64,000 nt of DNA from an uncultured Candidatus Saccharibacteria bacterium (lineage in GTDB: Bacteria; Patescibacteriota; Minisyncoccia; Phycocordibacterales; UBA6899): positions 93,164-157,163 of the forward strand of contig CAZERF010000002.1 in the NCBI GenBank assembly GCA_964515375.1, in the 5' to 3' direction. Below the pieces are notes generated by a model. It made no database searches, was not told the origin of the DNA, and saw nothing but the letters and a program-made list of their open reading frames with translations. Below, in pieces: positions 2,728 to 46,076 of the stretch (position 1 is the stretch's first letter; every line of letters starts with the position of its first letter). A program made the translations under genes and the position numbers.

Positions 2728-2730
2728 CAA

Positions 2731-30025: not shown

Positions 30026-32593
30026 ATGGAAACCAAACTTTTTACGACTAAGTTCGTGCGCATATTTTTTATATTAATTAGTGGTGTTTTACTCTCCTCC
30101 CAGACAGCGCTTGCTGCCGTCAGTTATAGCCAAACGGTGACACTCCAGCCCGGATGGAATATCGTTTCAACCCCACGCATTCTTGAGTCGCATAACTTCT
30201 CCATGCCAGAGACGTCTACAAATCTCAGTGTGTTCATGCTGGACGCATCGGATCCAAGTGGGTGGGCACCAATGTCTGGTGAGTTTGCGCCACTCTACGG
30301 ATATTTCATCAATAACAAGACCGCAACATCGCAGACGCTCACCTTTAATTTCAAGGCAAGCACAACCCCGAACGAGCGACTGTTCGATCGGTCATTTGCT
30401 ACTTCCGGCTGGTACTCAATTGGCGTTGCAAATCCCACTTACGCAGATCGCCAAGGTGAGGCGAACGTAGACGAGAACAATCCCTCCCAAGTATTTGATT
30501 CTGTTATTGCTTCGACAGATTTAGTCGTGGACTTTACCGATGCAGACTCGGTATTTAGCCCTGCGAGTGTTGCACTTGCTGATCCTTGGGGAGCTGCGAT
30601 TGCCACTGACGTGAACACCCTTGCTGATATTCGTGACACCAAGGGTTATGCGATCTATATAAATACTTCCGGATCACATTACATTGGATTTCAGAACGAG
30701 AGTGACGATGGTGGCACGGGTTCGGTCCCAACATATACGCCAGGCACACTAAGCATCACCAAGGCAGCAGATTCTCCTTCAGGAAATGTTATCCAGAATG
30801 GCTCAGGGGTAACACTTGGAAAATTCACATTCCAGGCGCAAGGAGAGAGACTGAAGGTTGAAAACCTCAAAGTTGCGCTAACCTCATCCGACACATCTTG
30901 GGGGAGTATTCGCAACGGCGCACTGTTTGCGAATGGTGTACAGGTAGGATCGACGAACAATATTCTTACCGCAACAGGAACGCAGTTCAATCTTGGTAGC
31001 TCCCTCATCATTGATGCTGGTCAAAGTGTCACCATCGAAGTACGCGGTGATATTTATGACAATGATGGCACTAATGATTCTTCTTCCGGAGACACCATAA
31101 AAGTCCAGTTGCTTGCCGGAACATCCAATGTCTATCGACTTACAACACTTGATTATATTTCAAGCGAGAGTAAATCTGCCAACATCGTGACAGTAGCAGA
31201 AGCGACACTTGCCCTTGCGAAATATGCGAGCTATGCAAACCAGACCATCATTGTTCCACAAACCGCATTTAAGATCGGCGAATACCGCCTTACTGCCGGA
31301 GCAGACGAGGGGGTAAATCTCGATACAATCACGCTCGCACTTGGGGGGTCGGCGACAGTTACACACCTCACCAATCTTTACGTGGTGTATGGCTCAAAGA
31401 CCTCGACCGTAAAGGCAACAGGAGCAACATCTCAGCAGTGGTCCATCAATGAGGCACTGTCGGCGAATGGCACGATGAGCATTGCGGTCTATGCAGATAT
31501 GAGCGGAAGCATTTTAAGTGCCTCGACTACGATAACCACACTGACTCTTTCGGGTACCGGACAAGGTTCTGGTAGCCCAGTCACATCGCCCGCTGTTACT
31601 GGACAAACGATCACTGCTGGCGAAGGCGTGCTCACTGGAACAGTGGATTCCTCGACCCCCATTTCTGCACTCCTTGTGGGCAACTCAATGCCAAAGGTAG
31701 CATCATTTAAATTTACCGCATCAAATGATTCTTTCACGATTACCGAACTCGCAGTAACAGCGAAAAGCGTAGCTGATGCGAGTGCAGTTACTGAGCTAGT
31801 GTTCAAAGACGGAGCGACAGAGATCAGACGTGTTTCTTACAATGGAGCTGTTGCCACTGCCACTGGTCTTAGTGTCGTGGCACAGTTCAATGCGACTAAG
31901 GTTATTGATGTGTATGCGAATCTCGGTTCTATCGGCACAGGATTTGTGGACACAGGTGCCAATGTGGGAATTACACTCACGAGTTTCAAGGCGCAAAATT
32001 CAAACGGCGTAAACACGACTCACTCAGTTAGTCTTGCAAGCAACGATTTCTACGCACACAAGACAAAACCAACACTCACAAACGTTGCGCTTCCGACCTC
32101 CGTACTATCTTCGGGCACAGTGACGATTGCAAAGGTAAACGTTACAGCAGACGCAGGAGGTACACTCGCGTGGAGGAAAATAGTATGGAATGTCGCCACA
32201 TCTTCTCCTGGAACGTTTACCGTCGGTTCTCCTGCAGTCTACGATGCAGCAAATGAGTCAACACCGCTTGCCAATGTCACCACGTCGATTGATCCGAGCA
32301 CTGGTGTTATTACCGTTACCTCAACAGTCGACCAAGAGGTGAGTGGTTCAAAGACCTATGTGCTCAAGGCAACTATTGGCGGATCGGTTCAGACTGGTGC
32401 ATCTGTTTCTACGAGCATTGCAGGAGGAGTCACATCACACAGTGTGCCAACCACGTATGCAGGGGCAGCATCGAACTCGTCCTTTGTGTGGTCCGATGAA
32501 TCAGTTGTGGGACACAGTGATACAACCACTGACTGGATGGATAACTATCTCGTGAAAAATCTTCCAACAGATTCACAGACACTCACAAAATAA
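30026..32593 (+). CDS. Large secreted Thr/Ser/Gly-rich beta-repeat surface protein (adhesin or S-layer-like)
   Basis: Signal peptide METKLFTTKFVRIFFILISGVLLSSQTALAAV. 855 aa of low-complexity repeats. The start was moved to the ATG at 30026. Confidence 0.65.
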   Translation: METKLFTTKFVRIFFILISGVLLSSQTALAAVSYSQTVTLQPGWNIVSTPRILESHNFSMPETSTNLSVFMLDASDPSGWAPMSGEFAPLYGYFINNKTATSQTLTFNFKASTTPNERLFDRSFATSGWYSIGVANPTYADRQGEANVDENNPSQVFDSVIASTDLVVDFTDADSVFSPASVALADPWGAAIATDVNTLADIRDTKGYAIYINTSGSHYIGFQNESDDGGTGSVPTYTPGTLSITKAADSPSGNVIQNGSGVTLGKFTFQAQGERLKVENLKVALTSSDTSWGSIRNGALFANGVQVGSTNNILTATGTQFNLGSSLIIDAGQSVTIEVRGDIYDNDGTNDSSSGDTIKVQLLAGTSNVYRLTTLDYISSESKSANIVTVAEATLALAKYASYANQTIIVPQTAFKIGEYRLTAGADEGVNLDTITLALGGSATVTHLTNLYVVYGSKTSTVKATGATSQQWSINEALSANGTMSIAVYADMSGSILSASTTITTLTLSGTGQGSGSPVTSPAVTGQTITAGEGVLTGTVDSSTPISALLVGNSMPKVASFKFTASNDSFTITELAVTAKSVADASAVTELVFKDGATEIRRVSYNGAVATATGLSVVAQFNATKVIDVYANLGSIGTGFVDTGANVGITLTSFKAQNSNGVNTTHSVSLASNDFYAHKTKPTLTNVALPTSVLSSGTVTIAKVNVTADAGGTLAWRKIVWNVATSSPGTFTVGSPAVYDAANESTPLANVTTSIDPSTGVITVTSTVDQEVSGSKTYVLKATIGGSVQTGASVSTSIAGGVTSHSVPTTYAGAASNSSFVWSDESVVGHSDTTTDWMDNYLVKNLPTDSQTLTK

Positions 32594-32594
32594 T

Positions 32595-33590
32595 ATGAAA
32601 AAACTCATCCTCTCTATACTTCTCATCCTTCCGCTCAGTGCATTTGCCGCACTGCCAGCATTTCCGATGTCGTTTTATGGGACTGCAACGATTAATGGCA
32701 CCCCTGCACCAGTTGGGACAATCGTTCGTGCATATTACGGAACGACACTTGCGGGGCAGGTGAGTATGAGCGAGGTCGGCATCTATGGTTACGATAATCC
32801 CACCAAACAACAGCTTCTTATCGGCGAGGGTGCCACAGCGATCCGTTTTACTGTTCAATCAAGCACTATAAATAGTGGGACTGAAACTGAAGGAACAGCA
32901 TCGCAATCACACCCCTCGTTTGTATCAGGCGATGTAGTCTCAAAAAATCTCACCTTTACATGGAGTGCTCCTGTTCCAGCACCTACGCCTGCACCATCAG
33001 GTGGCGGGGGTGGAGGTGGTGGCGGAGGGGGAGGAGGGGGCGGTGGAGGTGGATCCGCAACACTGTACGGCTGTATGGATAAAAAAGCGGTAAATTATAG
33101 CCCCATTGCTACTGTCGATAATAAAGCATGCGTTTACCCATCTGGGGTGACTGCAAGTACGACAGCACCGACACCTGCTCCAGTCACGCAGACAAGCACA
33201 GTAAAACCCGTCGGAGAGGTTGCGGGTGCATCGACCTTTATGTTCACTCGTAATCTCAATGTGGGTTCAACGGGAAACGACGTAACCGAATTACAGAAGC
33301 GACTAACTGCGGAAGGATACTATGTTGGTCCAATTACTGGGTACTTCGGTCCGCTCACTGGTGCTGGGGTGAAGAAGTATCAATCAGCACACGGACTAGA
33401 GCAGGTGGGGAACGTTGGGCCAAAGACTCGATCAATACTGAATCAGGGTGGGAGTGTGCTTGGAGCAAGCACTGTATCAACATCGGTCACGGTATTAACA
33501 CCGGAGGCTCGTGCAACGCTCATCAAGCAATTGCTCGCAATGATCATTGAGCTTCAGAAGCAACTTGCAGCACTCAAGGCGCAACAATAG
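32595..33590 (+). CDS. Secreted protein with an 18-residue poly-Gly linker and a C-terminal peptidoglycan-binding domain (PG_binding_1)
   Basis: Signal peptide MKKLILSILLILPLSAFA. The stretch FTRNLNVGSTGNDVTELQKRLTAEGYYVGPITGYFGPLTGAGVKKYQ is a canonical PGBD1. Start lies 2 nt after the previous stop. Confidence 0.7.
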   Translation: MKKLILSILLILPLSAFAALPAFPMSFYGTATINGTPAPVGTIVRAYYGTTLAGQVSMSEVGIYGYDNPTKQQLLIGEGATAIRFTVQSSTINSGTETEGTASQSHPSFVSGDVVSKNLTFTWSAPVPAPTPAPSGGGGGGGGGGGGGGGGGGSATLYGCMDKKAVNYSPIATVDNKACVYPSGVTASTTAPTPAPVTQTSTVKPVGEVAGASTFMFTRNLNVGSTGNDVTELQKRLTAEGYYVGPITGYFGPLTGAGVKKYQSAHGLEQVGNVGPKTRSILNQGGSVLGASTVSTSVTVLTPEARATLIKQLLAMIIELQKQLAALKAQQ

Positions 33591-33605: not shown

Positions 33606-34925
33606 TCATTTTTCTAACGTTATCGTTTTATCCTTCAGAACGATTCGGTTTTTTAGACACCCGAGGAGTTCACGCTTCTCAATCATCGTGCCTTCTTTGA
33701 GCATATATTTTGCGTAGTTGCGCACGTCGACATCGAGGGCTTTATCGTTCTCCTTTGCTCCAAGTAGCTTCGCGCGGATTTTGTTGTATCGCGCAACCTC
33801 TCTTTCGATAATGTGGCGTGTTCCGAGTTCATCGATATCAATCTTGTCGAAAATCTCGTCGATTTGCTTGAGTAATTCCTCTTCTCGAATGAATGGGTTC
33901 TTACAGAAGTGATCTTTGTTCCTTGTGCAGTTGTAGTAGATGTAACTCCGCACTGTGCCGTCTTTGAGATTCTTGTCTTTTTCCTGTGCCGTAATTCCTG
34001 ATCCGCAGTACCCACATAGCATGAGATTGGTGAAGGTGAATTCCTGATACTGCTTTTTCGAACGGAGTTCCTCGGTGAGCTTGAGTTGAACTTTCTCGAA
34101 CAATTCCTTCGAAACAAGTGCTTCATGTTGTCCTTTGTACCAGTTTCCACTTCCGCCGGGGTATTCGAATGTCCCTGAGTATAGCGGTTGCCGCAAGATA
34201 CGATAGATAGTACTGAGCGTTAGCGATTTCCTTCCTTTTCGTACGCTCGCAAATCTGCCTTCTTTTTCCATCCAGTGATAGACCTTCCGTCCGCTCCATC
34301 GTTCGTTGCCGACCTTTTCGAACATCTGTTTGATAATCGGCCCGCGCAGGGGGTCAACGAGAATGTATCCTGCACGCCCGGGCATGCGGTCGTTGATATA
34401 TCCGGTCGGTGCGACACACGGCCACAGTCCCATCTCAACTTTTGCCCGAAGCCCGCGCTTCACATTCACGCCCTTGTTATCATTCTCGAGTTTTGCCTGT
34501 GAACACAAAATCATGAGAAGAAATTTCTCGCTCGGGCTGTTGGTGAACTTTTGACCGAACGTTCGTACTTCAATCAGTCTATGCTCGTCCATTAGGTCAA
34601 CAATTGCTCCTAGGTCACCCGCATTTCTACTTAAGCGATCTGGGTGCCACGCAAGGATGGCATTGAATTTTCCTGCCTTGAGGTCGTTAATCAACTCATT
34701 GAAGACGGGTCGTTGCCCGGTACTTTTTGCCGAGTGTGACTCACGCTTGATGTCGACCACATCGAGCCCCTCCCGTTGTGCCAACTGTAGCATCTCTTTG
34801 GCTTGGGAATCGATTGAAAGGGCTTGCTGTTCGTCCGATTCCGACGATTTTCTAGCGTATAAACAGTATCTAATCTTTGGCTCGTCAGAGCCCTCTAGCG
34901 GGTTCGAATTTTTCATACACACCAA
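33606..34925 (-). CDS. Large serine recombinase (resolvase-type catalytic domain + recombinase domain + Zn-ribbon)
   Basis: IRYCLYARKSSESDEQQALSIDSQ carries the catalytic Ser. C-terminal CGYCGS...C...C Zn-ribbon. 439 aa. Confidence 0.85.
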   Translation of the reverse strand: MVCMKNSNPLEGSDEPKIRYCLYARKSSESDEQQALSIDSQAKEMLQLAQREGLDVVDIKRESHSAKSTGQRPVFNELINDLKAGKFNAILAWHPDRLSRNAGDLGAIVDLMDEHRLIEVRTFGQKFTNSPSEKFLLMILCSQAKLENDNKGVNVKRGLRAKVEMGLWPCVAPTGYINDRMPGRAGYILVDPLRGPIIKQMFEKVGNERWSGRKVYHWMEKEGRFASVRKGRKSLTLSTIYRILRQPLYSGTFEYPGGSGNWYKGQHEALVSKELFEKVQLKLTEELRSKKQYQEFTFTNLMLCGYCGSGITAQEKDKNLKDGTVRSYIYYNCTRNKDHFCKNPFIREEELLKQIDEIFDKIDIDELGTRHIIEREVARYNKIRAKLLGAKENDKALDVDVRNYAKYMLKEGTMIEKRELLGCLKNRIVLKDKTITLEK

Positions 34926-35065
34926 TGAATGACGCTACCCTCCCAGGGAGTCCAGGAATGGCAGATAGTACGCAATAAGGGTAAATATAGTCAAAAATAT
35001 CAATCCTTGCGTAAGGATTGACAATCCTTACATAGGAGAATAGTATTTACGCATAAACAAAAACC

Positions 35066-35284
35066 ATGAAACAAGAAGAAAAGCGCGAAAGATTTAAGAG
35101 GCTCGGGACGCAACGTACAAACGCGGTGCTCCAGAAGATCAAAGTGCTCAGCAATTGTGCGAATCGGAGCGCGTATGAGTATACGGAAGAGGAGGTGAAT
35201 AAGATTTTTTCAGAGATTGAACGGCGGGTACGCGAGGCGAAGGCGAAATTCCATTTCCCGAAGACGAAAGAATTTAAACTATAA
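35066..35284 (+). CDS. Small basic hypothetical protein, first gene of the GHKL/Type III operon
   Basis: 72 aa, Lys/Arg/Glu-rich helical protein. Lies 4 nt upstream of the GHKL ATPase gene. Confidence 0.45.
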   Translation: MKQEEKRERFKRLGTQRTNAVLQKIKVLSNCANRSAYEYTEEEVNKIFSEIERRVREAKAKFHFPKTKEFKL

Positions 35285-35288
35285 AAAT

Positions 35289-37043
35289 ATGTCCATCCAT
35301 CCCAAAATTTCCCCACGCATCATCAACTCCATTGCGACACTCTATAACGATGTGAACCGCATCTTCATGGAGTACATTGATAATGCAATTGATAGCGCAG
35401 ACCAGAATTGGTTTGATCGTCCCCGCAATGCATACTCCCGTCCTGTTGAGGTCACTGTCCATATCAAGGGGCACAGTCATAAAGACGCAGAAGTCGTCAT
35501 TACTGACAACTGCTTTGGCATCACAAATTTCACCAAAGTCGTAGAGAGTATCGGGGACTCAGACAAGAAAGCACAAGGATTCACTAATGGACAATTTGGT
35601 TTTGGTATCTATTCCTTTATGGCGGCGTGCTCGGATCTTGAGCTCACTTCAAAAGAAGAGGGAAAGAGCGCACTTCGTCTCGTGCTTAACCGTGAACAGT
35701 TTGATAAGAAGTCAGTTGAGGAGGTTAGCATCCCCAGCCCCAAAGAAACCAAGCATTTTCCTCATGATTCGGGCACCCAAATCCGGCTTCATGGGTTTGA
35801 TAAGGACGCATGGAAAAATGTTGTTGCCAAAACGCTCAAGGAGGAGATAGAAAAACACTTTGAGCTCATTCTTCGTCGCGGGAATCTCACGGTGAAAATT
35901 ATTGATGAAACGTCGGAGCAAGAAATACTCTGTGAAGCCTTTGATTATGACAATTTTGATGGGGAGGTATACGAGGACCACATTGAACACTTTGATCTTG
36001 AGAGCGGTCGTCGCCACAAGGTGACGGAAAAGTGGGAATTGAAAGACCCGGTGCATATATTCCTGAAAATGACGAAGGGTCAGGTACTCAACAAGCCCCC
36101 AGTGTTCGTCTCAAAAGGAAGACGAATTTGTGAGATCAAGGATGTGAAGTCATTCAAGTCAGCACACAAGAGCGACATCTGGGGACACGCAAATGTCACG
36201 GGGTACATTGACCTCAAGGATCTGCTCGGGCCAACAATTGCACGCAACGACTTCAAGAGCGACAAAAACTCACGCGCTCTTTTTGCGGAACTTGTAGAGC
36301 TCGAGGATCTGATTCTTGATTATGTGAGACGTGCAAATGAGCATACTGACGAAAAACATTATCAGCAGCTTGAAGACGCGCTCAATCGCGCCCTCTCAAA
36401 GCTTGCGCGCGTTGATGCAATGAATTTCCGTACCTCTTTTCTCAAGGGTGGCGAGAAGAATCTATCTGGTGGATCTGCCGGGACGGAGTATGTAGAGGGC
36501 GTTGGGGCGCATGATTTTGGTGATGGTGAAATTGAGAATCCAGGAGAAGGAGTTGGGGAGGACGAGGGTGAGGGACTCGGGACTCACGAGGGTGGCGACG
36601 ATCTTCCGGGCGGGGCAACCTCAGGCGAACAAGCAAAGAACGAAGAACTTTTTGCTGACAGTGAATTCAAGGGCAAAGAGCGCAAGAAGAGTGGTTTCAA
36701 TATTCACATTTCTGATGCAGAGCCCCAGGTGGATGCCGAGACGGGGAAGCAACTGCGCTCACTCCTTTCGGGTGAACAAATTGTGATCTTTAAGAAGCAC
36801 GCAGATTTCCAGGCTCGCTTGAGCCACACTCGCCAAGGTGGATCAAAGATCACCGACAGACTCCTTGCGTACATTGCGGGGGAGATCACCGTGCACTACA
36901 AAGATGAGTTCTACAACAAGCGCCAGAATGGTCAGCCAGAATACAGCAAGAATATGTTCGTGAGCATGGCAGAGTTCATTTATCAACTTGAGGATGCCCT
37001 TTCCGCGCTTTCCGGGAAGAACCTCTCAGAACTCTCCTCATGA
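35289..37043 (+). CDS. GHKL-superfamily ATPase, MORC/MutL-like (HATPase_c_3-like), with an acidic low-complexity C-terminal region
   Basis: N-terminal Bergerat-fold motifs: YIDNAIDSA (N-box), DNCFGI (G1-like) and GQFGFGIYSF (G2). 584 aa. Overlaps the next gene by ATGA. Confidence 0.65.
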   Translation: MSIHPKISPRIINSIATLYNDVNRIFMEYIDNAIDSADQNWFDRPRNAYSRPVEVTVHIKGHSHKDAEVVITDNCFGITNFTKVVESIGDSDKKAQGFTNGQFGFGIYSFMAACSDLELTSKEEGKSALRLVLNREQFDKKSVEEVSIPSPKETKHFPHDSGTQIRLHGFDKDAWKNVVAKTLKEEIEKHFELILRRGNLTVKIIDETSEQEILCEAFDYDNFDGEVYEDHIEHFDLESGRRHKVTEKWELKDPVHIFLKMTKGQVLNKPPVFVSKGRRICEIKDVKSFKSAHKSDIWGHANVTGYIDLKDLLGPTIARNDFKSDKNSRALFAELVELEDLILDYVRRANEHTDEKHYQQLEDALNRALSKLARVDAMNFRTSFLKGGEKNLSGGSAGTEYVEGVGAHDFGDGEIENPGEGVGEDEGEGLGTHEGGDDLPGGATSGEQAKNEELFADSEFKGKERKKSGFNIHISDAEPQVDAETGKQLRSLLSGEQIVIFKKHADFQARLSHTRQGGSKITDRLLAYIAGEITVHYKDEFYNKRQNGQPEYSKNMFVSMAEFIYQLEDALSALSGKNLSELSS

Positions 37044-37906
37044 GCACTCAAGTCCTCATAGAAGCCATCACGCCTTCATATAATGCCTACCAGAAGGGTC
37101 AGGGTACCCTCACGCCAACCGAGCTCATTATGCTCATGTGGGACATTGGCGCAGCGATTGAGAGGCATGTGAATGAACACAAAATCCCCCCACATGCGCT
37201 GTATCGCCAGGTATATGGCAAGAGTGAGGGTACGCAAAACATCAAACAGCGCAGTTATATTGCGCGTGAGTTTTTAAGTAGAAGCTATCGCGTGAAGCGC
37301 ATATTCAAGACGAAGAGTGAGATCAAAAAGCAACTTCCGAAACTTTCCGCGATCAATCACTTTCGTGAGGCGATGCCATTTTTTGATAATCCAAAGTATG
37401 TACTTGGGGCAAAAGAAAAGCAGGAGCTCCTTCGTGTGATCAATGGTCCGCTCTCCAACAAAGAGAAAGAGAACTACATCCAGAAACTTCAATCAAAGAA
37501 AATCGGGATCAAGAATCCGCGTACACAAAATCTGAATCTCCTTGATGAGGATAAGTTGGTGTTTGTGAAGCTCTATAACGATGTGTTCAACGCACTGAAG
37601 CTTGAGAACTATGACAAGGCAAAGAAAGCCCTCTCTCTCCCGTCACCAAAATTTCTTGCGATACTTTCACTCAACTGTGGAGCTATTTCTGCCGATGGGC
37701 TCATGATGGAAAAATTTGAACCGCCGAAGGATCTCAGTGCGAAGTGGAAGGCGTTTGTCGGGGTGATACAAAAGCTCATCAAAGATGAAAACCCGAAAGA
37801 ACGTAGACGCTTCCGGAGACTCATCCCACCAGAGCGCATGATCCGACTCTCCGAAATGCTCTACGCATTGACCACTCCGGAGAAATATAAGAGCTTCAAG
37901 ATATAA
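37040..37906 (+). CDS. Hypothetical all-alpha protein co-transcribed between the GHKL ATPase and Mod
   Basis: 288 aa with no recognisable domain. Translationally coupled upstream; 16-nt gap to mod. Confidence 0.5.
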   Translation: MSTQVLIEAITPSYNAYQKGQGTLTPTELIMLMWDIGAAIERHVNEHKIPPHALYRQVYGKSEGTQNIKQRSYIAREFLSRSYRVKRIFKTKSEIKKQLPKLSAINHFREAMPFFDNPKYVLGAKEKQELLRVINGPLSNKEKENYIQKLQSKKIGIKNPRTQNLNLLDEDKLVFVKLYNDVFNALKLENYDKAKKALSLPSPKFLAILSLNCGAISADGLMMEKFEPPKDLSAKWKAFVGVIQKLIKDENPKERRRFRRLIPPERMIRLSEMLYALTTPEKYKSFKI

Positions 37907-37922
37907 TCACAAGATAAACAGC

Positions 37923-39818
37923 ATGAACAAATTTGACCCCACATCACACAACATCACGGAGGAGCAGAGAGCCCAACTGAAGGAATCGTTTCCAGAAGCA
38001 TTTACTGAGCAGGGAATAGATTTTGAGTGTCTCAAGACACTTCTCGGGGAAACGGTTGAAACAGGACCCGAGCGCTATTCCTTCACCTGGCCAGGGAAGA
38101 CTGAGGCGATTCGTGCCGCACAAGCATCAAGTATGGGCACGCTCGTTCCAGACAAAGCATCGTCAGTGGATTGGGACACCACAGAGAATCTGTATCTTGA
38201 GGGAGACAACTTGGAGATTTTGAAGCTCCTTCAGAAGTCCTACGCCGGAAAAGTGAAGATGATCTATATTGACCCTCCATACAACACTGGAAAGGACTTT
38301 GTGTACCCCGACAAGTATGGTGAGGGCCTGAAGACATACCTGGAATATACGGGGCAAATAGATGGCGAGGGAAAGAAGCTGACGACAAACACCGAAACAG
38401 ACGGTCGCTACCACTCAAAGTGGCTTAACATGATGTACCCACGACTGATGCTCGCACGGAATCTGCTCAAGGATGATGGGGTGATCTTCGTCTCAATTGA
38501 TGATCATGAGGTCCACAATCTGCGGAAGATTATGGACGAGGTTTTTGGAGCAGAGAATTTTATAGCAGTATTTACATGGGTGCGCAAAAAGAAAGGTTCA
38601 TTCTTGTCTGACAAAACAAGAAAAATGACGGAATATATAGTCTGCTACCAAAAAAATATTTCTGAAAAATTGGAGTTTTATGGAGAGGATGCATACGCGG
38701 ACAAATGGCAGCCCATCGTGAAGCGTACAAATTCAGAAAAAGAACTATCAATCCCAGAAAATGTTGTTGAAACAACACTGGAAGATGGAGAATATGAGGG
38801 TGGATTCCGAGGCAACGAAGGAACCGGTATAAATTTTCAAAACAACTTTAAAGTTGAAGATGGTCTTGTAAAAAACAGGATTATCGTACGTGGAAACTTT
38901 GTTTGGACACAAGATTTTTTAGATCGCGAACTTGTTAGTGGCACCAGGATTTCTCTCTCAACAAAATTTGGTTTTAATGTCTTGAGGCACGATCAAGAAG
39001 AAAAAACAAAAACACCGTCAACCCTAATTAATAGTGACAATGATGTTGGAACGAATGAGGATGCCACCGCTGAGGTAATCAGCCTATTTGATGGAAAGAA
39101 AGTTTTTGATTATCCAAAACCCGTATCACTACTTTCTTATTTAGTGAAAATGGTTACTTCCGAAAATGATATTGTATTAGATTTCTTTTCCGGATCAGGA
39201 ACCACCGCACATGCGCTGATGGAAATAAATGCTAAAGATGGGGGAGGGAAAAAATTTATATTAACCCAGCTTCAGGAAACAGTACCTAACGATAGTGAAG
39301 CGCAAAAATCTGGATTCCAAAATATCTCAGAACTTGGACGCGAGAGAATCAAGCGCGCCGGAAAGAAAATTCGCGAGGAACTTGCCGAGAATATCACCAC
39401 AAGAGAAACCCCACTGGACACAGGATTTAAGGTATTTCGCCTTGCTCCAAGTACGTTCAATGTTTGGGATGTGAAAGGAGAAGATGATCTTCAAGTGAAA
39501 CTCGTTGACGCCACTTCCTTGATCAAGGGGGATGCAAAAGAGGAGGACATTCTCACTGAGCTCATTTTGAAGAGTGGCTACGGACTCACAGAGAAAGTTG
39601 AGCAGATCACACTCTCCGAGAAGAAGTTTTATTCGGTCGCAGGTGGGAAGCTCATTGTTTCGCTTGAGTCAGGACTTACGCTAGAGCATGTACGGGCAAT
39701 TGCCGAGAAGAAACCGGAACAGTTTGTTGCGCAGGAGCATGGCTTTGCAAGCAACGATGTGTTGACCAACACTGCGCAGATTATGAAAGATAAGGGAATT
39801 GATTTCCGCGTACTCTAG
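37923..39818 (+). CDS. mod: Type III restriction-modification methyltransferase (Mod), N6-adenine, beta class
   Basis: IYIDPPYNTG (motif IV, DPPY), then a central variable TRD, then VLDFFSGSGTTAHA (motif I FxGxG). 631 aa. Confidence 0.85.
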   Translation: MNKFDPTSHNITEEQRAQLKESFPEAFTEQGIDFECLKTLLGETVETGPERYSFTWPGKTEAIRAAQASSMGTLVPDKASSVDWDTTENLYLEGDNLEILKLLQKSYAGKVKMIYIDPPYNTGKDFVYPDKYGEGLKTYLEYTGQIDGEGKKLTTNTETDGRYHSKWLNMMYPRLMLARNLLKDDGVIFVSIDDHEVHNLRKIMDEVFGAENFIAVFTWVRKKKGSFLSDKTRKMTEYIVCYQKNISEKLEFYGEDAYADKWQPIVKRTNSEKELSIPENVVETTLEDGEYEGGFRGNEGTGINFQNNFKVEDGLVKNRIIVRGNFVWTQDFLDRELVSGTRISLSTKFGFNVLRHDQEEKTKTPSTLINSDNDVGTNEDATAEVISLFDGKKVFDYPKPVSLLSYLVKMVTSENDIVLDFFSGSGTTAHALMEINAKDGGGKKFILTQLQETVPNDSEAQKSGFQNISELGRERIKRAGKKIREELAENITTRETPLDTGFKVFRLAPSTFNVWDVKGEDDLQVKLVDATSLIKGDAKEEDILTELILKSGYGLTEKVEQITLSEKKFYSVAGGKLIVSLESGLTLEHVRAIAEKKPEQFVAQEHGFASNDVLTNTAQIMKDKGIDFRVL

Positions 39819-39820
39819 TC

Positions 39821-42766
39821 ATGAAGCTGCAATTTGATCCAAACCAGGAGTACCAGATGGATGCGGTTCGTGCATCGGTAGATCTCTTTGAGGGGCTACC
39901 GATTGAGGAGGACAGTTTTTCCGTTTCTGTGGCAAAAGAAAATTTGCCAGGGATGTTTGAGGCGCAAACTGAAGATGTGCTCGCATTTGGAAACCACACC
40001 ACTCTCCCCGACGATGAATTATTGAAGAATCTTCAGTCTGTGCAAGAACGAAATGGGATTGAGGTCACTGAGACACTTCAGAAAACAATGGGGTATCCGC
40101 AATTCTCTGTTGAGATGGAAACTGGGACAGGAAAGACCTATGTGTATCTACGCACGATCCACGAGCTCCATGCGAAGTATGGATACAGCAAGTTTGTGAT
40201 CGTGGTTCCCGGTAAGGCAATTCGCGAGGGAACACTCAAGAATTTGGAGATCACGGGAGATCACTTCCAGACTCTCTATGGAAACACGCCATTTTCGTAT
40301 GCAGTGTATGACTCAAAAAACATGAGTACTGTGCGTGACTTTGCTGTATCGCGCGGGCTCTCAATTTTGATCATCAACATTGAGGCATTTCGTAAGGATT
40401 TTGATGATGAGAATATGGATCCCGAGAGAGGTGTGCTTTTTCATCGTCCGAGCGAGAAGCTCTCCGGTCGTTCACCGCGCGAATTCTTGCAAGCAGTCCA
40501 TCCGATTGTGATTATTGATGAACCGCAGAGTGTAGACAATACTCCGATAGCAAAGAAGTCCATCTCACTCCTTAATCCTTTATTCACCCTCCGCTATTCT
40601 GCAACGCACCGTAATCCGTACAATCTCATTTATCGCCTAGATCCCATTCGTGCGTATGAGATGCGACTCGTGAAGAAGGTCGCTGTGGCCGAAGTTCTTG
40701 GATCACAAGAATCGGGGGCAGGTGCGTATATAAAACTCATTTCAGTTACCAATGATGGAGGAATTAAGGCACAGATTGAGATTGATGAGGATAACGAAAG
40801 CGGTCCGAAGCGAAAGAAGATCAAAGTGAAGGGTGGTGACGACTTGTTTGTGAAATCCAAACATAGAGATGCTTATCAGAATGGTTTTCTGGTCGGCGAG
40901 ATTGGCGCCGAACAAGGGAAGGAGTTTATTTCTTTTGAACCAAGTGGAATCACGCTCCATATTGGCGAGGCACTCGGTGGTGACGATGAGGCTATTAAGC
41001 GCCTCCAGATCAGGAAAACGATTGAAGAACATTTTGAAAAGGAACTAGAGCTTGAAGGGCGCGGAATCAAAGTGCTCTCGCTTTTCTTTCTGGATCGTGT
41101 AGCAAACTATCGTCTCTATCCCGAAGAAGGGGAAGCTGAGAAGGGTCAGTACGCCAAGTGGTTTGAGGAAGAGTATGAGCGTCTGCGTCAGACTGAGAAA
41201 TATAAGACACTGAAGCAGCCACCAGTTGAAAAGGTGCATGATGGTTATTTTGCTGAAGACAAGAGCGGCAAACTCAAAGATTCTCGCGGTGAGGGCGATA
41301 CCGCCGACGATGAATCTGCTTACAACAAGATCATGAAAGAGAAGGAGCGCCTGCTCTCTTTTGAGGAGCCCCTCAAGTTCATTTTCTCTCACTCAGCATT
41401 GCGTGAAGGATGGGACAATCCGAATGTGTTTCAGATTTGCACACTCAATCAGGCACATAACGCGATCAAAAAGCGCCAGGAAATTGGGCGTGGGATGCGC
41501 CTCCCCGTGGATCAGAGTGGGGTCCGCGTATTTGATGAGTCAATTAACAAACTCGTTGTTGTTGCGAATGAGAGTTATAAGGATTTTGCACGAAAACTCC
41601 AGACTGAATATGAAGAAGATTGTGGGGTAACATTCGGAAAGATTACTGAGAAGACATTTGTGGGACTCACATATGAAAAAGATGGCGCAGAGGTGTTGCT
41701 AAATGAAGCAACGATTGCGACAATCATCCAAACACTTCGGACATTAGGCATGATTGATGAGAATGGCAAACTCACGGATGCTTTTGATCCTACACAAGTA
41801 GGATTCACCCTGGGGCTCATGGGAGACTTGAAGGAGATTGAACTGGAGATCATTGATCGGATCAAAGAATACCAACTTGAGCGCCATATTGTGCGTCACC
41901 AAGCGAAAGGGCGCGTTAAGATCAACAAAGAAGTATTCTTGAGCCCCGATTTTGCTGAGTTGTGGAATCGTATTAAGGCAAGAACTACCTATGCGGTGAA
42001 GTTTTCCGACGACCTACTGATAACGACAATTTCGGATCGCCTGCGTGCAATGCCCGCGATCACGCTCCCTAAGGTGCAGTATGTGAAGGCTGAGTTCTCG
42101 CTGGATGATCGTGGGGTGACAACACGCGAGGTGCGAAATAGAACCGAGGAGGTGAAGCAGGACAATGCGCAGCTTCCGGACATCCTCTCGTATCTCCAAC
42201 GAGCAACGCATCTTCGGAGGAAGACGCTCGTAGATGTACTTACGCGCTCGGGGAGGCTCGCTGATTTCGCGAAAAACCCTCAAAAATTCATGGATGTGGT
42301 GGCCGAGACAATCCGCGCTGAGCTTCGCCGTCTTTCTGTTGAGGGTATTCAGTATGAGCGTGTGGCAGGCGAGGAGTATGAAATGACCCTTTTTGAGGAT
42401 CACGAGTTTTCTGCATATTTGAGCGATCTTCTCCCGTCTAAGAAGTCGGTGTACGAACGCGTTTCCTATGACTCTGATATTGAGCGTCGCTTCGCCTTGG
42501 AGTTAGAGAAGAAGGATCAGGTCAAACTCTATGTCAAACTTCCATCATGGTTTACCGTTGAGACTCCGGTGGGCAAATACAATCCCGATTGGGCGATAGT
42601 GAAGCACGGAGACGAGAAGGTGTACTTGGTCCGAGAGACGAAAGGTTCACTTGAAGCAAGCGCGCTCCGAATTTCAGAAGATCAGAAGATCAAGTGCGGC
42701 AAGAAGCACTTCGCCTCCATCGGCATGGACAACTTTGAGGTGGTAAAAGATGCGAGTGAGATATAG
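39821..42766 (+). CDS. res: Type III restriction enzyme Res subunit (SF2 helicase + C-terminal PD-(D/E)xK nuclease)
   Basis: METGTGKTYVYLRTI (Walker A), VIIDEPQ (motif II), QxxGRGxR-like region HNAIKKRQEIGRGMRL. 981 aa. Starts 3 nt after the mod stop. Confidence 0.85.
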   Translation: MKLQFDPNQEYQMDAVRASVDLFEGLPIEEDSFSVSVAKENLPGMFEAQTEDVLAFGNHTTLPDDELLKNLQSVQERNGIEVTETLQKTMGYPQFSVEMETGTGKTYVYLRTIHELHAKYGYSKFVIVVPGKAIREGTLKNLEITGDHFQTLYGNTPFSYAVYDSKNMSTVRDFAVSRGLSILIINIEAFRKDFDDENMDPERGVLFHRPSEKLSGRSPREFLQAVHPIVIIDEPQSVDNTPIAKKSISLLNPLFTLRYSATHRNPYNLIYRLDPIRAYEMRLVKKVAVAEVLGSQESGAGAYIKLISVTNDGGIKAQIEIDEDNESGPKRKKIKVKGGDDLFVKSKHRDAYQNGFLVGEIGAEQGKEFISFEPSGITLHIGEALGGDDEAIKRLQIRKTIEEHFEKELELEGRGIKVLSLFFLDRVANYRLYPEEGEAEKGQYAKWFEEEYERLRQTEKYKTLKQPPVEKVHDGYFAEDKSGKLKDSRGEGDTADDESAYNKIMKEKERLLSFEEPLKFIFSHSALREGWDNPNVFQICTLNQAHNAIKKRQEIGRGMRLPVDQSGVRVFDESINKLVVVANESYKDFARKLQTEYEEDCGVTFGKITEKTFVGLTYEKDGAEVLLNEATIATIIQTLRTLGMIDENGKLTDAFDPTQVGFTLGLMGDLKEIELEIIDRIKEYQLERHIVRHQAKGRVKINKEVFLSPDFAELWNRIKARTTYAVKFSDDLLITTISDRLRAMPAITLPKVQYVKAEFSLDDRGVTTREVRNRTEEVKQDNAQLPDILSYLQRATHLRRKTLVDVLTRSGRLADFAKNPQKFMDVVAETIRAELRRLSVEGIQYERVAGEEYEMTLFEDHEFSAYLSDLLPSKKSVYERVSYDSDIERRFALELEKKDQVKLYVKLPSWFTVETPVGKYNPDWAIVKHGDEKVYLVRETKGSLEASALRISEDQKIKCGKKHFASIGMDNFEVVKDASEI

Positions 42767-42782
42767 CACAACAACAAACACC

Positions 42783-43316
42783 CTACGTGGGGTGTTTGTT
42801 GTTCTCGCCACTCTTTTGTTTCGCCTCTTCACATTTTCTGATTTCCTCTTCCAACTTAAATACACCTGCGAGGCCGGCGTTGTGGAGCGCTCTTGATATC
42901 TCCTCCAACATATAGTCTGGAAGACGATTCTCCAGCGGGTTACTCTCATCAGTGTATCTCCATCGAGAATCGGCATAGGTGCCATGGTGATGCTTGAGCC
43001 AGAAGACAATTGCAGTCATTGCGCCATCTTTGATTTTCTTAATGAGTTGAGACTCGGCCATATCGTTGACGAGAGTTCGTCCTTCGCTGATCGCGACCGC
43101 GCTTTCCTCGGCGAAGTGCTTATCCGAATTCATCCACTTGTAGTATGTTGCACGGGCGACCCCAGCTCGCTCGCAAGCAAGCTGGATGATCGAACTCTTG
43201 CGCAGGTGCTCAAGTACTTCCTGCTTCATTTGTGCGGTGCGCTTCTCTGTCGCACCACTTGGTTGGGACACTACTTTCTTCGGTCCCCGCTTTGGTGTGT
43301 GCGGTGACCGGGTCAT
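42783..43316 (-). CDS. HTH DNA-binding protein (terminase-small-subunit / transposase-OrfA-like HTH)
   Basis: IIQLACERAGVARATYYKWMNSDKHFAE is a typical phage/IS HTH_23-type motif. Confidence 0.55.
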   Translation of the reverse strand: MTRSPHTPKRGPKKVVSQPSGATEKRTAQMKQEVLEHLRKSSIIQLACERAGVARATYYKWMNSDKHFAEESAVAISEGRTLVNDMAESQLIKKIKDGAMTAIVFWLKHHHGTYADSRWRYTDESNPLENRLPDYMLEEISRALHNAGLAGVFKLEEEIRKCEEAKQKSGENNKHPT

Positions 43317-43325: not shown

Positions 43326-44666
43326 TTAGTTGATCTTCTTTGCCCGCACCCCGGCTGTTTTCTCCCACCGACGCAGAATCACCTCGGCATAGACGGGGGA
43401 CTTTTCCATGAGAAAGCACCGTCGTCCAAGCTTGAGTGAGGCGATGAGGGTACTTCCGCTTCCGCCAAAGGGCTCAAGAACGAGGTCTCCGCGTTTGGTG
43501 AGCACCTTGATGTATGGGATGAGGATCTCGGTCGGCTTTGTCCCAAAGATGACCCCTTGTCCTGATGACTTCTCGTCCGCGGCGATATACTCAACGAAGT
43601 CGGTCGGACAGACCTTCTTTCCTTTCTCGTACCCCTCCCACTGGGGTTTACCACTTGTCGCATAGAGGGCATTCTCGTATTCATTCTGGAAGAGACCTTC
43701 TTCTTCCTCGAGGTTGAGTCCGACATTTCCGATTGACCCCACCAATGCAATATCTTGCTTATTGAAGAACTTATACTTTGAACTAAAGCCCTGCATTCTA
43801 TTAGGGAGATGCCAAGTGATGGTATTGCGGTACTTCCAATGCTTCTCGAGCTCGTTCCATATAGTGCGGAGATTCTTTGGGTGCTCGAAGATCATGATTG
43901 AGAAATCCTCTTTCTGCACCTTCGCGACATTTGCCATCCATTTCTCGGTAAAGTCTGGTGGAAGGACGTCGGTCTCGAGGTATCGACGGTTCTTCTTCGC
44001 CCCGAATCCAGTTGTGACACCATCCTTCTGCTTCGTTTTGCCCTTTAAATAATCAAGGATATACGGAGGATCCGTCATGGTCATGTCCACTCGCTCATCG
44101 CCCATGAGGGTGAGCATGTTCGCTTCGATGGTCGAGTCCCCACACATGAGCCGGGAGCCGTTGCATTCATAGATGTCACCCTTCTGCACTTTCACTTCTG
44201 TAATCGAGAGTTTCTCGAGTTCTTTCTTGAGATCGAATTGTTCCGGCGCAGAATCAACATCGAAGATGCTATCGAGGTCTTCCGTGGTGAAGCCAATGTC
44301 TTTCAAGAAATCCTCTCCGAAATCTGCGAGCATCTTGAAGTCGAACTCCCCGAGATTCTTATTCAGTCGCACATTAAGCTCCTTCTCCTTCGCGAGGTCT
44401 GCAATCGTGATGTACACCACGGGGACTTGTTCAACGCCAAGCTCGGTCGCTGCCTTGAGTCGGAAGTGACCGCCAATGACGATGTTCTCTCGTCCGGGCG
44501 CATCGTTTGCCACGAGCGGATCTACAAAACCGAAACGCCTGATGCTCTCCTTGAGTGCGCTCATCTGCTCCGCATTCCACGTGCGCGGGTTGTATTCGCT
44601 TGGCTTGAGGCTGGTAATCGATACATAGCTGATAGATAACTTGTTCATAACAAAATAGCTAACCAT
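43326..44666 (-). CDS. ParB-like nuclease domain fused to a DNA methyltransferase (phage-type orphan N6/N4 MTase)
   Basis: N-terminal ParBc region ISITSLKPSEYNPRTWNAEQMSALKESIRRFGFVDPLV. MTase motifs DPPY (TMTDPPYILDY) and EPFGGSGSTLIA. Confidence 0.75.
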   Translation of the reverse strand: MVSYFVMNKLSISYVSITSLKPSEYNPRTWNAEQMSALKESIRRFGFVDPLVANDAPGRENIVIGGHFRLKAATELGVEQVPVVYITIADLAKEKELNVRLNKNLGEFDFKMLADFGEDFLKDIGFTTEDLDSIFDVDSAPEQFDLKKELEKLSITEVKVQKGDIYECNGSRLMCGDSTIEANMLTLMGDERVDMTMTDPPYILDYLKGKTKQKDGVTTGFGAKKNRRYLETDVLPPDFTEKWMANVAKVQKEDFSIMIFEHPKNLRTIWNELEKHWKYRNTITWHLPNRMQGFSSKYKFFNKQDIALVGSIGNVGLNLEEEEGLFQNEYENALYATSGKPQWEGYEKGKKVCPTDFVEYIAADEKSSGQGVIFGTKPTEILIPYIKVLTKRGDLVLEPFGGSGSTLIASLKLGRRCFLMEKSPVYAEVILRRWEKTAGVRAKKIN

Positions 44667-45492: not shown

Positions 45493-45823
45493 GCACAATG
45501 CGACGGTGTGTCTACTTTGTCTACTCAATTTGGTTCGAGTCCGAGTAGGGGGGGCTGATGAAGAGTCGAACTTTTTTATGAAACCCAGGTGGTGCTTGTG
45601 GGGTCTCATGAAGTGCGAGAATCGTCAGAATGAGGAGGCGGAGGCAAGAGAGGGGGTGATGATGGGGAAGTGATCTTTTGACCCCGACCGGATAGCCTCC
45701 TGTCTACTTGAAGAAGGAGCTCAAAGAACCTTGTCAGGGCCTCGCCCCCAAAGGTCGTGACTGGATTGGCACCCAACATCACAAAAGCAGAGCGTAAGCT
45801 CTGCTTTTGTTTTGATGTTGGAG

Positions 45824-45844
45824 TGCCTACAGGGATTCGAAAGA
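45824..45844 (-). repeat. Inverted copy of the tRNA-His 3'-end core (inverted att-core fragment)
   Basis: Reverse complement ctttcgaatccctgtaggcac has 19 nt matching tRNA-His 27622-27640. It sits 214 bp before attR. Confidence 0.7.
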
Positions 45845-46057: not shown

Positions 46058-46076
46058 CGAATCCCTGTAGGCACCC
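46058..46076 (+). repeat. attR: 19-bp direct repeat of the tRNA-His 3' end
   Basis: cgaatccctgtaggcaccc is identical to 27625-27643. Confidence 0.8.

Follow-up and report, generated by a model that had tools for sequence, protein, structure and literature searches.

A three-gene module encoding a MORC-like GHKL ATPase shares an operon with Type III mod and res genes on a tRNA-His island

The window, a 64,000-nucleotide stretch of DNA from an uncultured Candidatus Saccharibacteria bacterium, carries an operon of five genes, g1, g2, g3, mod, and res, on an integrated island. In our best reading, based on sequence comparisons, the conserved unit is the g1-g2-g3 module (the trio) rather than the five genes together, and the trio is not intrinsically an accessory of restriction-modification (R-M). 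We propose that a Type III system in one clade acquired an autonomous MORC-like module as its accessory ATPase, an explanation over which our confidence is evenly divided.

Results

A five-gene operon on an integrated island

Five co-oriented, tightly packed open reading frames (ORFs) are present at 35066-42766. They and the elements around them are as follows.

27571-27646, + strand: tRNA-His (ARAGORN); its 3' end (27626-27644) forms the island's left att-like repeat
33606-34925, - strand: large serine recombinase, divergent from the operon (Pfam Resolvase, Recombinase, and Zn_ribbon_recom)
35000-35046, + strand: element upstream of g1 with the promoter-like site TTGACA-17-TAGTAT at 35018-35046
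35066-35284, + strand: g1, 72-aa basic protein (pI 9.9) without family assignment, first gene of the conserved trio
35289-37043, + strand: g2, 584-aa GHKL ATPase (HATPase_c_3 match)
37040-37906, + strand: g3, 288-aa basic all-alpha protein of orphan fold, obligate neighbor of g2
37923-39818, + strand: Mod, N6/N4 DNA methyltransferase (PADLOC MTase_III, 5.4e-194; Pfam N6_N4_Mtase, 1.7e-38)
39821-42766, + strand: Res, SF2 helicase with a C-terminal PD...ExK endonuclease (PADLOC REase_III, 5.6e-292; Pfam ResIII and RE_endonuc)
42770-42803, no strand: perfect-loop inverted repeat between res and a convergent gene (17-nt arms, 94% complementary, 0 nt between the arms)
46058-46076, + strand: right att-like repeat, identical to the 3' end of tRNA-His, giving an island of ~18.4 kb

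The g1-g2 gap is 4 nt, g2 and g3 overlap by ATGA at 37040-37043, and gaps of 16 and 2 nt separate g3 from mod and mod from res. The only strong + strand promoter match of the operon is that at 35018-35046, and a TTGACA promoter-like site occupies the equivalent position upstream of g1 in several related loci (e.g., L002, L005, L017, L019, L027, and L031). The hairpin at 42770-42803 is likely a bidirectional terminator that marks the operon end, and no credible internal terminator was found within the five genes. The single promoter-like site, the lack of a credible internal terminator, and the overlapping or nearly abutting genes indicate that the five genes form one operon, from promoter to hairpin.

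A 19-nt exact direct repeat pairs 27626-27644 with 46058-46076 and brackets the serine recombinase and the operon; an inverted copy of it is found at 45820-45841. The initial annotation had proposed a five-gene operon inside an integrated island next to a serine recombinase. ORF and junction checks confirmed its coordinates, junctions, and co-orientation, and the tRNA-His repeat and the Pfam domains of the recombinase confirmed the island. A backbone composed of the recombinase and a ParB_N-methyltransferase recurs in L124 and L083.

Analysis of the region upstream of g1 also revealed a palindrome, TCAATCCTT-gcgt-AAGGATTGA, at 35000-35021, which overlaps the -35 element and is followed by a third half-site at 35022-35030. 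Its overlap with the promoter-like site makes it a possible operator. The palindrome was not conserved upstream of g1 in related loci, a weak negative given that the scan dropped equal-span matches. As the promoter is kept across related loci and the palindrome is not, we dropped the idea of a conserved operator.

The Type III pair appears intact

The PADLOC MTase_III model covers residues 2 to 629 of Mod, with DPPY at residue 117 and FSGSG at residue 422, and REase_III covers residues 1 to 979 of Res, which contains the motifs GTGKT, DEPQ, and PD..ETK. The two proteins are thus a beta-class methyltransferase and an SF2 helicase joined to a PD-(D/E)xK endonuclease, as expected of Type III enzymes and as initially annotated. 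Strong PADLOC matches of both were to R-M models only; marginal Res matches, with E values of 4e-4 to 0.01, were to Cas3b, type IV DinG, and PbeA models. With its DPPY, FxGxG, Walker A, DEPQ, and PD..ExK motifs intact, the pair looks functional as judged from its sequence. Res scored 327 bits against the NCBIfam equivalog PRK15483, below the 564-bit cutoff, and therefore belongs to a distinct subfamily.

The hallmarks of Type III systems are hemimethylation of asymmetric sites and ATP-dependent cleavage, for which two sites in inverse orientation are required. Canonical systems work with mod and res alone, and an accessory is therefore not strictly required. The window locus shares with canonical, EcoP15I-like Mod2Res systems the end-to-end profile matches, the order of mod before res, and all catalytic motifs. 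It differs from them by three additional co-transcribed genes upstream and by its Res subfamily, sampled relatives of which usually have an SNF2 gene upstream.

g2 is a MORC-type GHKL ATPase

The match of g2 to Pfam HATPase_c_3 (E=2.6e-10, 40.9 bits) lies above the 25-bit cutoff. The signatures of the GHKL superfamily, i.e., the N-box (ExxxN; E28/N32/D35), G1 (DxGxG; D73..G77), and G2 (GxxGxG; G101-x-F-G104-x-G106), are invariant across 65 g2 homologues. A Bergerat fold and a transducer-like domain (residues ~1-325) are followed by a long helix (326-375), an acidic, Gly-rich disordered linker (~379-468), and a conserved C-terminal domain (~469-584). The succession of a GHKL domain and an S5-fold transducer domain is the MORC/paraMORC architecture of Iyer et al. 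(2008). In the C-terminal domain, H504, E532, H536, and D539 are invariant; the ExxxH pair E532/H536 is located there and not in the S5 domain, the paraMORC2 site. A profile of the C-terminal domain found no match among PDB sequences.

By its fold, g2 is best read as a GHKL ATPase of the MORC/SMCHD1/Hsp90 branch with an overall layout like that of MutL. The HATPase_c_3 match, the invariant motifs, and the fold agree with the earlier description of a MORC-like ATPase with N-box, G1, and G2. The initial annotation had also raised the prospect of an ordinary histidine kinase or a MutL fragment, which Pfam, NCBIfam, and fold ranking ruled out. Thus, g2 matches neither MutL family models nor a MutL-type C-terminal dimerization/endonuclease domain, and it has neither the DHp/HisKA or STAS partner nor the kinase-type HATPase_c of sensor histidine kinases and anti-sigma kinases, CapK included. 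Membership in the HEF_HK/Response_reg_2 family, a paraMORC-related, two-component-like group (PMC8011034), was rejected because the architecture differs.

The ATPase modules of SMCHD1 and MORC2/3 share the ATP-binding motifs of g2, but identity is merely 13-18%, and g2 lacks their CW, hinge, and chromatin-reader domains. The bacterial operon context and the C-terminal half, with its long helix, acidic linker, and small conserved domain, also set g2 apart from these proteins. Its ATPase fold points to an action on DNA or chromatin and matches no known integration, replication, or partition machinery.

g3 and g1 are basic proteins

g3 (pI 9.9, net charge +23) represents a small family of orphan fold with an invariant RRxRR motif at residues 256-260. 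It matched nothing in Pfam, NCBIfam, PADLOC, or PDB sequences, in line with the initial description of a partner without a recognizable fold. None of g1, g2, and g3 had a match in PADLOC-DB v2 at E<=0.1, and Pfam detected no STAS or HTH domain in them. Comparison of the divergence of each g2 domain with that of g3 gave the highest correlation for the g2 C-terminal domain (r of 0.84, versus about 0.7 for the others). We discarded this co-variation as evidence of a contact: L031 does not follow the pattern, and the proximity of the genes on the DNA accounts for the correlation just as well.

The trio is widespread and mostly found without mod and res

Of 79 dereplicated lineages from many phyla, 74 have a GHKL gene immediately upstream of g3, a pairing that holds in L121, the remotest g3 homologue tested. 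g1 is highly conserved among related loci and was found upstream of the GHKL gene in 34 of the 46 lineages with enough upstream DNA. mod and res follow directly in 14 of the 74 lineages, where 11-43 nt separate g3 from mod. These 14 lineages form one clade, which includes the window locus, in the g2 tree as well as in the g3 tree, both of them simple neighbor-joining trees without support values. The question raised earlier, whether homologues of the 288-aa protein recur with GHKL and Type III genes, was thus answered in the affirmative.

The initial annotation had reasoned that homologues occurring only without mod and res would mean chance adjacency. Most trios (about 80% of lineages) do lack adjoining mod-res genes, but 14 of 74 lineages have them, and the split follows the clades. 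Given this majority, the trio must have a function independent of the Type III enzymes. The view of the five genes as one composite system therefore stands as regards their stable linkage within a clade, but the conserved unit is a three-gene module mostly found without R-M.

Housekeeping genes flank the trio at L012, L010, L062, and L096; another trio clade carries a gene for a multi-HTH protein, and others carry nothing. Neighbors elsewhere include Shedu SduA_C, ABC-3C components, MNT/HepT, Fic, an AAA_15 ATPase, a pPIWI-associated nuclease, NYN, and trypsin-like proteases. The trio is widespread in uncultured bacteria of many phyla, Patescibacteria included, and rides small integrative islands and defense-gene neighborhoods. 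Its components are mosaic between loci, which fits loosely coupled modules and a tight complex equally well.

The trio might serve the mobile element itself, e.g., in its maintenance, in DNA compaction, or in the exclusion of competing elements, with mod-res as cargo. The operon is indeed part of a tRNA-His island, in divergent orientation to a serine recombinase gene, and recombinase homologues adjoin the trio in 7 of the 30 dereplicated lineages whose upstream DNA extends for at least 4.5 kb (e.g., L007, L014, L015, L027, and L044), frequently in the clade with the multi-HTH gene; the recurring recombinase and ParB_N-methyltransferase backbone points the same way. However, the other 23 of these 30 loci with long flanks have no recombinase, and the fold of g2 is unlike that of known mobile-element machineries. 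Moreover, searches of 72,556 plasmids with g2 and of 50,697 phage records with g3 gave no match, and the trio was present on 1 of 2.9 million viral contigs. A role in the island backbone is therefore improbable.

The cargo downstream of the trio varies (mod-res, a multi-HTH protein, a kinase, or a protease), as it would for a signal-responsive controller of the downstream operon akin to CapK/CapS, CapW, BrxR, or C-proteins, with g1 and/or g3 as the DNA-binding proteins and the ATPase as the sensor. The basic character of g1 and g3, the palindrome over the -35 element, and the precedent of GHKL-based controllers of immune operons (PMC13373217) also agree with such a function. We nevertheless consider it very doubtful, as many trios are followed by housekeeping genes or by no co-oriented cargo, gaps of 11-43 nt between g3 and mod are too short for a regulated promoter, g1 to g3 have no STAS or HTH domain, and related loci do not conserve the palindrome. 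Like the trio, CapK/CapS (PMC13373217) combines a GHKL protein with a partner upstream of variable immune operons, sometimes adjoining R-M. Nevertheless, CapK is an HTH-STAS-kinase-type GHKL protein and CapS a STAS-wHTH protein, whereas g2 is of the MORC type without STAS and g3 is all-alpha; this domain content ruled out that the trio is a CapK/CapS pair.

The trio occupies an SNF2 slot

The closest Res homologues (at least 55% identity) lie on contigs whose sizes match those of trio contigs. The trio was absent from all five sister Res loci sampled, at 51-59% identity. The order SNF2, Mod, Res is clear in four of them (L115, L116, L118, and L123), with AAA_13 or OLD+UvrD in addition to SNF2 in some. 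In the fifth, L122, the contig begins within the upstream region, and no Pfam match is recorded for the fragment that remains. The trio thus occupies the slot held in sister mod-res operons by an SNF2 helicase, sometimes together with ABC- or OLD-type ATPases. Its adjacency to mod-res is not due to chance, because it recurs in a stable clade and the sampled sisters have no trio and have SNF2 wherever the upstream region is readable.

These data bear on whether two independent systems are merely stacked, i.e., whether the trio is a self-sufficient defense or DNA surveillance system, its output perhaps delivered by the g2 C-terminal domain, and the Type III pair is co-transcribed without biochemical cooperation. 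The trio is autonomous in most lineages, its defense-type neighbors form a shifting set (SduA_C, ABC-3C, MNT/HepT, Fic, and others), and the g2 C-terminal domain has invariant His, Glu, and Asp residues. Against this, YbeY/zincin matches are only putatively placed in that domain, its profile finds nothing in PDB sequences, and the mod-res linkage is stable throughout the clade, with gaps of 11-43 nt that leave no space for an intergenic promoter. Stable linkage and the presence of SNF2 in the same position argue for functional replacement over random stacking, and we regard independent stacking as rather unlikely.

Discussion

The recruitment model would make the locus a composite of a three-gene module and a canonical Type III mod-res pair, joined in one transcription unit in one clade. 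By analogy with other ATPases with a GHKL domain and a transducer, g2 would dimerize upon ATP binding and act as a DNA clamp or conformational switch. Basic g3 may bring g2 to DNA or to the Mod2Res complex, with specificity perhaps determined by the variable segments of g3; g1 may bind DNA as a small regulator of the operon promoter. The module would then modulate Type III activity, either by loading or licensing Mod/Res or by letting distant sites communicate. We infer the physical interaction, the DNA binding, and the effect on restriction or methylation alike.

A tentative possibility is that the trio is a self-contained, hitherto unnamed DNA-surveillance system, built around a bacterial MORC/SMCHD1-like ATP-dependent DNA clamp that the fast-evolving basic g3 aims at foreign DNA. 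It would be modular, one clade having taken mod-res in place of SNF2, with methylation and/or restriction gated by ATP in the spirit of MANTIS, and another having taken the multi-HTH protein. If so, the MORC/SMCHD1 silencing machines would have in the trio their first prokaryotic counterpart amenable to experiments.

The locus offers a clean test: it is compact, its mod-res genes seem intact, and its accessory module is sharply delimited. Natural comparators exist in the SNF2-bearing sister operons and in trios without R-M. An effect of the trio on Type III methylation or cutting would extend ATPase-licensed, methylation-based defense (BREX, MANTIS) and illuminate the bacterial roots of the MORC/SMCHD1 chromatin silencers. 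Should the trio act alone, it would be a candidate new defense system common in Patescibacteria and other uncultured lineages.

MANTIS, in which an ATPase and a small basic co-regulator are required to load a hemimethylating methyltransferase (bioRxiv 10.64898/2026.09.23.753747), follows a similar operon logic. MANTIS/Gao_RL comprises an ATPase, a small basic co-regulator without recognizable fold, a hemimethylating adenine methyltransferase, and a helicase-nuclease effector. However, its families (DUF499 AAA+ ATPase, DUF3870 protein, BREX-type methyltransferase, and PLD-helicase) are unrelated to those of the window, and the likeness is one of analogy, not homology. Signatures of catalogued defense systems in PADLOC-DB v2 (DUF499, DUF3870, PglZ, and DrmA/B) were not found at the locus. 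Identification of the trio with MANTIS (Gao_RL), BREX, DISARM, or any other PADLOC system was rejected, as g1 to g3 have no PADLOC matches.

As the initial annotation stated, surveys have predicted MORC-type GHKL ATPases in R-M operons: Iyer, Abhiman, and Aravind predicted in 2008 that MORC/paraMORC ATPases work with Type III-like helicase-nucleases (PMC2292703, here and below in its available sections). Those operons and that of the window have in common a GHKL protein with a transducer-like domain, a sporadic, laterally mobile distribution, and the presence in one operon of a methyltransferase and a Type III-type (Rad25-like) SF2 helicase with a restriction-endonuclease-fold nuclease. The available sections of PMC2292703 place GHKL genes beside helicase, nuclease, and methylase genes and do not describe a trio with a 288-aa all-alpha partner and a 72-aa protein. 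In the systems they present, the GHKL protein accompanies an SF2 helicase, whereas the window module replaces the extra SF2 (SNF2) helicase; most members of the trio family have no adjoining R-M genes, unlike those predictions. The prediction of 2008 could be tested at this locus.

The literature searched on bacterial MORC, HATPase_c_3, or Bergerat-fold defense modules and on SNF2-associated Type III operons yielded no description of the trio and no experiment on it or on any GHKL gene that shares an operon with Type III genes. The earlier remark that no such ATPase had been functionally characterized thus stands, within this search, for these two but not for GHKL proteins in general, as a paraMORC3-type GHKL-Shedu fusion, VcSduA, was tested in 2025 and requires its ATPase activity for defense (PMC12137116). 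VcSduA and g2 both have an N-terminal GHKL ATPase, but VcSduA combines it in one polypeptide with a DUF4263 PD-(D/E)xK nuclease, a domain that g2 lacks, and g2 is encoded with other partner genes.

Organization of the locus

An ORF listing matched the five co-oriented ORFs of the initial annotation, as well as their junctions: g1 and g2 lie 4 nt apart, g2 overlaps g3 by ATGA, and 16 nt separate g3 from mod. The mod and res genes are separated by 2 nt.

Genes of the operon (all co-oriented)
35066-35284, g1, small basic protein, 72 aa
35289-37043, g2, GHKL ATPase, 584 aa
37040-37906, g3, 288 aa
37923-39818, mod, Type III methyltransferase, 631 aa
39821-42766, res, Type III restriction protein, 981 aa

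The + strand has a single strong sigma-70-like match, TTGACA-17-TAGTAT (35018-35046), just 5′ of g1, and a tight inverted repeat (42770-42803) directly follows res. Given abutting co-oriented ORFs, a lone promoter-like site and an inverted repeat at the end, g1-g2-g3-mod-res looks like a single operon.

A 9+9-nt palindrome at 35000-35021 overlaps the promoter-like site. It reads TCAATCCTT-gcgt-AAGGATTGA (35000-35030 region), overlaps the -35 hexamer and is accompanied by a third half-site, direct, CAATCCTTA, within the promoter spacer. These elements may constitute a candidate operator, and g1 would perhaps autoregulate the promoter. That the whole g1-g2-g3 trio is a regulatory module is a distinctly improbable reading; the CapK/CapS GHKL-kinase controllers (PMC13373217) are analogues of the trio, not homologues. 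ATCCTTA-like motifs occur near the promoters of four homologous loci (L002, L005, L014, and L017), at differing positions.

Over its full length, Mod fits the PADLOC Type III methyltransferase model (5.4e-194), and Res matched the Type III restriction model (5.6e-292), with Pfam domains N6_N4_Mtase in Mod and ResIII plus RE_endonuc in Res. The R-M motifs are intact: Mod has DPPY and FSGSG, and Res has GTGKT, DEPQ, and PD...ETK. Res scored 327 bits against an NCBIfam equivalog cutoff of 564, which sets it apart, by profile score, from the subfamily of the enterobacterial prototypes.

The g1, g2, and g3 proteins

The g2 protein scored above the Pfam HATPase_c_3 threshold, and in searches of Pfam, NCBIfam, and PADLOC none of the PADLOC, MutL, or histidine-kinase models matched it. 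Its N-box, G1, and G2 residues do not vary among 65 homologues. In an AlphaFold2 model (pLDDT 76.6), a Bergerat fold is followed by a beta-rich middle domain and a long helix (326-375); a disordered linker rich in Gly and acidic residues (~379-468; pI 4.4) then leads to a small, conserved C-terminal domain. This layout of N-terminal ATPase module, flexible linker, and C-terminal domain is MutL-like overall. Among solved proteins, a sequence-profile search placed HtpG/Hsp90 N-domains closest (3e-7).

Fold comparison of the g2 model (the two values for each match)
SMCHD1 ATPase module: 22.2, 299
MORC3: 19.2, 278
TRAP1: 19.0, 314
MORC2: 18.8, 290
ParE, TopoVI-B, MutL: ~16.4-16.5, 262-317
Histidine kinases, SpoIIAB: 5-6, 94-110

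With SMCHD1 and MORC3 at the top, the MORC-like GHKL assignment made initially is supported at the fold level, in addition to the HATPase_c_3 match, and g2 is predicted to be an ATPase-competent MORC/SMCHD1-like protein. Profile searches and fold comparison ruled out an ordinary histidine kinase or a MutL fragment, the outcome named initially as a refutation.

Searches with g3 in Pfam, NCBIfam, PADLOC, and PDB sequences returned no family or PDB sequence match, in line with its earlier description as lacking a recognised fold. Its confident model (pLDDT 88) is all-alpha, with 17 helices. The protein is strongly basic (pI 9.9, net +23) and carries an invariant RRxRR motif; segments ~51-100 and 251-288 are conserved, and 1-50 and 101-250 are variable. 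When 1.84 billion representatives were searched exhaustively with a profile, just 178 family members emerged, nearly all of 280-300 aa and unfused, the most distant of them without a Pfam domain. The g1 protein is likewise basic (pI 9.9) and highly conserved, and family searches gave no assignment.

The trio is the conserved unit

Scans with a g3 profile collected 31 genome, 80 metagenome, and 1 viral loci, dereplicated to 89 lineages. Among the named sources are many Patescibacteria, Bdellovibrionales, Gastranaerophilales, Brocadiaceae, deltaproteobacteria, Thermodesulfovibrionales, Bacteroidota, a Planctomycetaceae MAG, and Neomarinimicrobiota; the locus nearest to the window, L002, is labelled Candidatus Saccharibacteria. 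A GHKL gene lies directly 5′ of g3 in 74 of 79 dereplicated lineages, and the most distant g3 relative checked (L121) adjoins a 580-aa HATPase_c_3 gene. What is conserved is thus the trio or, at the least, g2 together with g3. The g1 gene was detected in 34/46 lineages by tblastn at 1e-5, which undercounts divergent copies, and a serine recombinase homologue in 7 of the 30 lineages with long upstream flanks.

The five-gene unit proposed initially thus holds in part: the trio or g2-g3 pair is kept across lineages, but a Type III mod follows directly 3′ in only 14/74 (19%). Many metagenome contigs in the survey are short. Two contigs of one Falkowbacteria MAG, L017 (ending 82 nt past g3) and L124 (beginning with mod), probably join as one trio-mod-res operon, so that short contigs make the survey undercount this linkage. 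Three loci with few long ORFs under translation table 11 (L021, L026, and L028) seem to use an alternative genetic code and were poorly parsed in the survey; tblastn still finds g2 and g3 in them, and their lineages of origin have probably reassigned a stop codon.

Type III linkage and sister operons

In neighbor-joining trees of g2 and g3 (60 loci, computed without support values), the trios linked to mod-res fall into essentially a single clade, with a g3-mod gap of always 11-43 nt. Type III linkage, whose recurrence among homologues had been proposed as a check initially, is therefore meaningful and stable within this clade but absent from most lineages. One reading is that trio and mod-res are stacked, independent systems, which we regard as unlikely though credible.

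A second clade has as its fixed fourth gene a multi-HTH protein of 410-530 aa (DnaA_C, sigma-70 region 4, and RNAP alpha-CTD-like HTH), which abuts g3 at 14 loci, often with a serine recombinase alongside; it directly follows g3 in L011, L015, L023, L074, L077, L081-L084, and L086. The remaining trios are unlinked. Trio neighbours include a Ser/Thr kinase, trypsin-like peptidases, an MNT/HepT toxin-antitoxin pair, Shedu SduA_C, ABC-3C components, an NYN protein, a pPIWI-associated nuclease, an AAA_15 ATPase, and a Fic protein, as well as housekeeping genes: pdxA and tyrS (L012), glmS (L010), formate-tetrahydrofolate ligase (L062), and thiF (L096). In L041, of the mod-res-linked clade, another gene (2480-3232) takes mod's place; by eye, its N-terminus looks AlbA_2/Schlafen-like.

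The Res family is very large, with at least 7,999 members at E ≤ 1e-50 (7,999 of 8,000 scored candidates), and the contigs of the closest homologues (≥55% identity) have the same sizes as trio contigs. The trio was found in none of five sampled sister Res loci (51-59% identity), one of which has no readable upstream sequence.

Sister Res loci
L115 (1105-10335), SNF2-Mod-Res, FokI-cleavage-domain gene after res
L123, SNF2-Mod-Res
L116 (1-9922), SNF2-Mod-OLD-UvrD-Res, with OLD-like AAA_15+TOPRIM plus UvrD, Gabija-like, between mod and res
L118 (1-9940), SNF2-AAA_13-Mod-Res, AAA_13/SMC_N ATPase upstream of mod
L122 (5-8451), AAA_13-Mod-Res as in L118, cut at contig start, upstream fragment without recorded Pfam match

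As these sisters lack the trio and carry the SNF2 helicase gene upstream where readable, the trio fills the accessory-ATPase slot of this Type III subfamily and is equivalent to SNF2 in position. The Mod-Res subfamily seems to serve as a gathering point for accessory modules. Trio versus SNF2 fits non-orthologous displacement, which Iyer et al. (PMC2292703) argued for paraMORCs.

Components are exchangeable between loci. Relative to the window, L044 shares 93% identity in the recombinase, 89% in g1, and 85% in Res; its g2 and g3 are at 57% and 47%. L002 has a breakpoint inside g2 (N-terminal half ~69%, C-terminal domain 98%) and a g3 at 91%, and L031 is at 71-92% throughout g2 and only 24-66% in g3. 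The fastest-changing part is g3, a pattern compatible with a role in specificity or target contact.

A possible role in Type III restriction

MutL, topoisomerase II, Hsp90, MORC, and SMCHD1 dimerise on ATP and serve as clamps or switches. This behaviour of GHKL+transducer ATPases, together with the precedent of MANTIS, suggests that g2 would act as an ATP-gated clamp or switch, that g3 would carry it to DNA or to Mod/Res, and that the trio would modulate the loading or licensing of the Type III system or communication between its sites. In MANTIS, an analogue and not a homologue of the trio, an ATPase and a basic co-regulator load a hemimethylating methyltransferase (bioRxiv 10.64898/2026.09.23.753747). 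The analysis shows one apparent operon with its R-M motifs intact, two partners that are basic, linkage that is stable within a clade, and slot equivalence with SNF2; by analogy, we give the clamp or switch proposal roughly an even chance. Most family members have no R-M linkage. A small probability remains for explanations outside those named here.

The general idea of MORC-type GHKL ATPases embedded in R-M operons, those with Type III-like helicase-nucleases among them, dates from 2008 (PMC2292703), in line with the surveys mentioned initially. The accompanying view that none had been functionally characterised no longer stands for GHKL proteins in general, since a paraMORC3-type GHKL-Shedu fusion has been tested (PMC12137116). 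Pfam, NCBIfam, PADLOC v2, PHROGs, and the literature searched yielded no description of the trio, of g3, or of how the clades divide into Type III-linked, multi-HTH-linked, and stand-alone trios. The locus renders the long-standing GHKL/R-M prediction directly testable.

The surrounding island

The last 19 nt of tRNA-His have an exact second copy at 46058-46076, and the 3′ end of the tRNA also occurs inverted at 45820-45841; the repeats bracket a ~18.4-kb segment containing the operon. With the recombinase domains, they bear out the initial description of an integrated island beside a serine recombinase.

Features around the operon
27571-27646, tRNA-His
29849-32593, 914-aa surface-type protein
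32595-33590, 331-aa secreted protein
33606-34925, minus strand, large serine recombinase (Resolvase, Recombinase, Zn_ribbon_recom)
42783-43316, minus strand, terminase-small-subunit-like HTH protein, convergent to res
43326-44666, minus strand, ParB_N-DNA methyltransferase fusion, convergent to res

The two surface-type proteins of the island bear no relation to the operon; the 331-aa one has a long poly-Gly run (encoded ~32999-33052) and a peptidoglycan-binding-like C-terminus. A similar pair of serine recombinase and ParB_N-methyltransferase lies beside trio/mod-res in L124 and L083, which suggests a common island backbone. That the trio itself serves an island backbone function has little probability.

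A 44-mer just past tRNA-His (region 27571-27687) has degenerate copies at 47925-47968 and 48624-48667. Together, the exact, inverted, and degenerate copies suggest tandem islets integrated at tRNA-His. A Fic/HTH gene (46138-47079) lies in the second of these islets.
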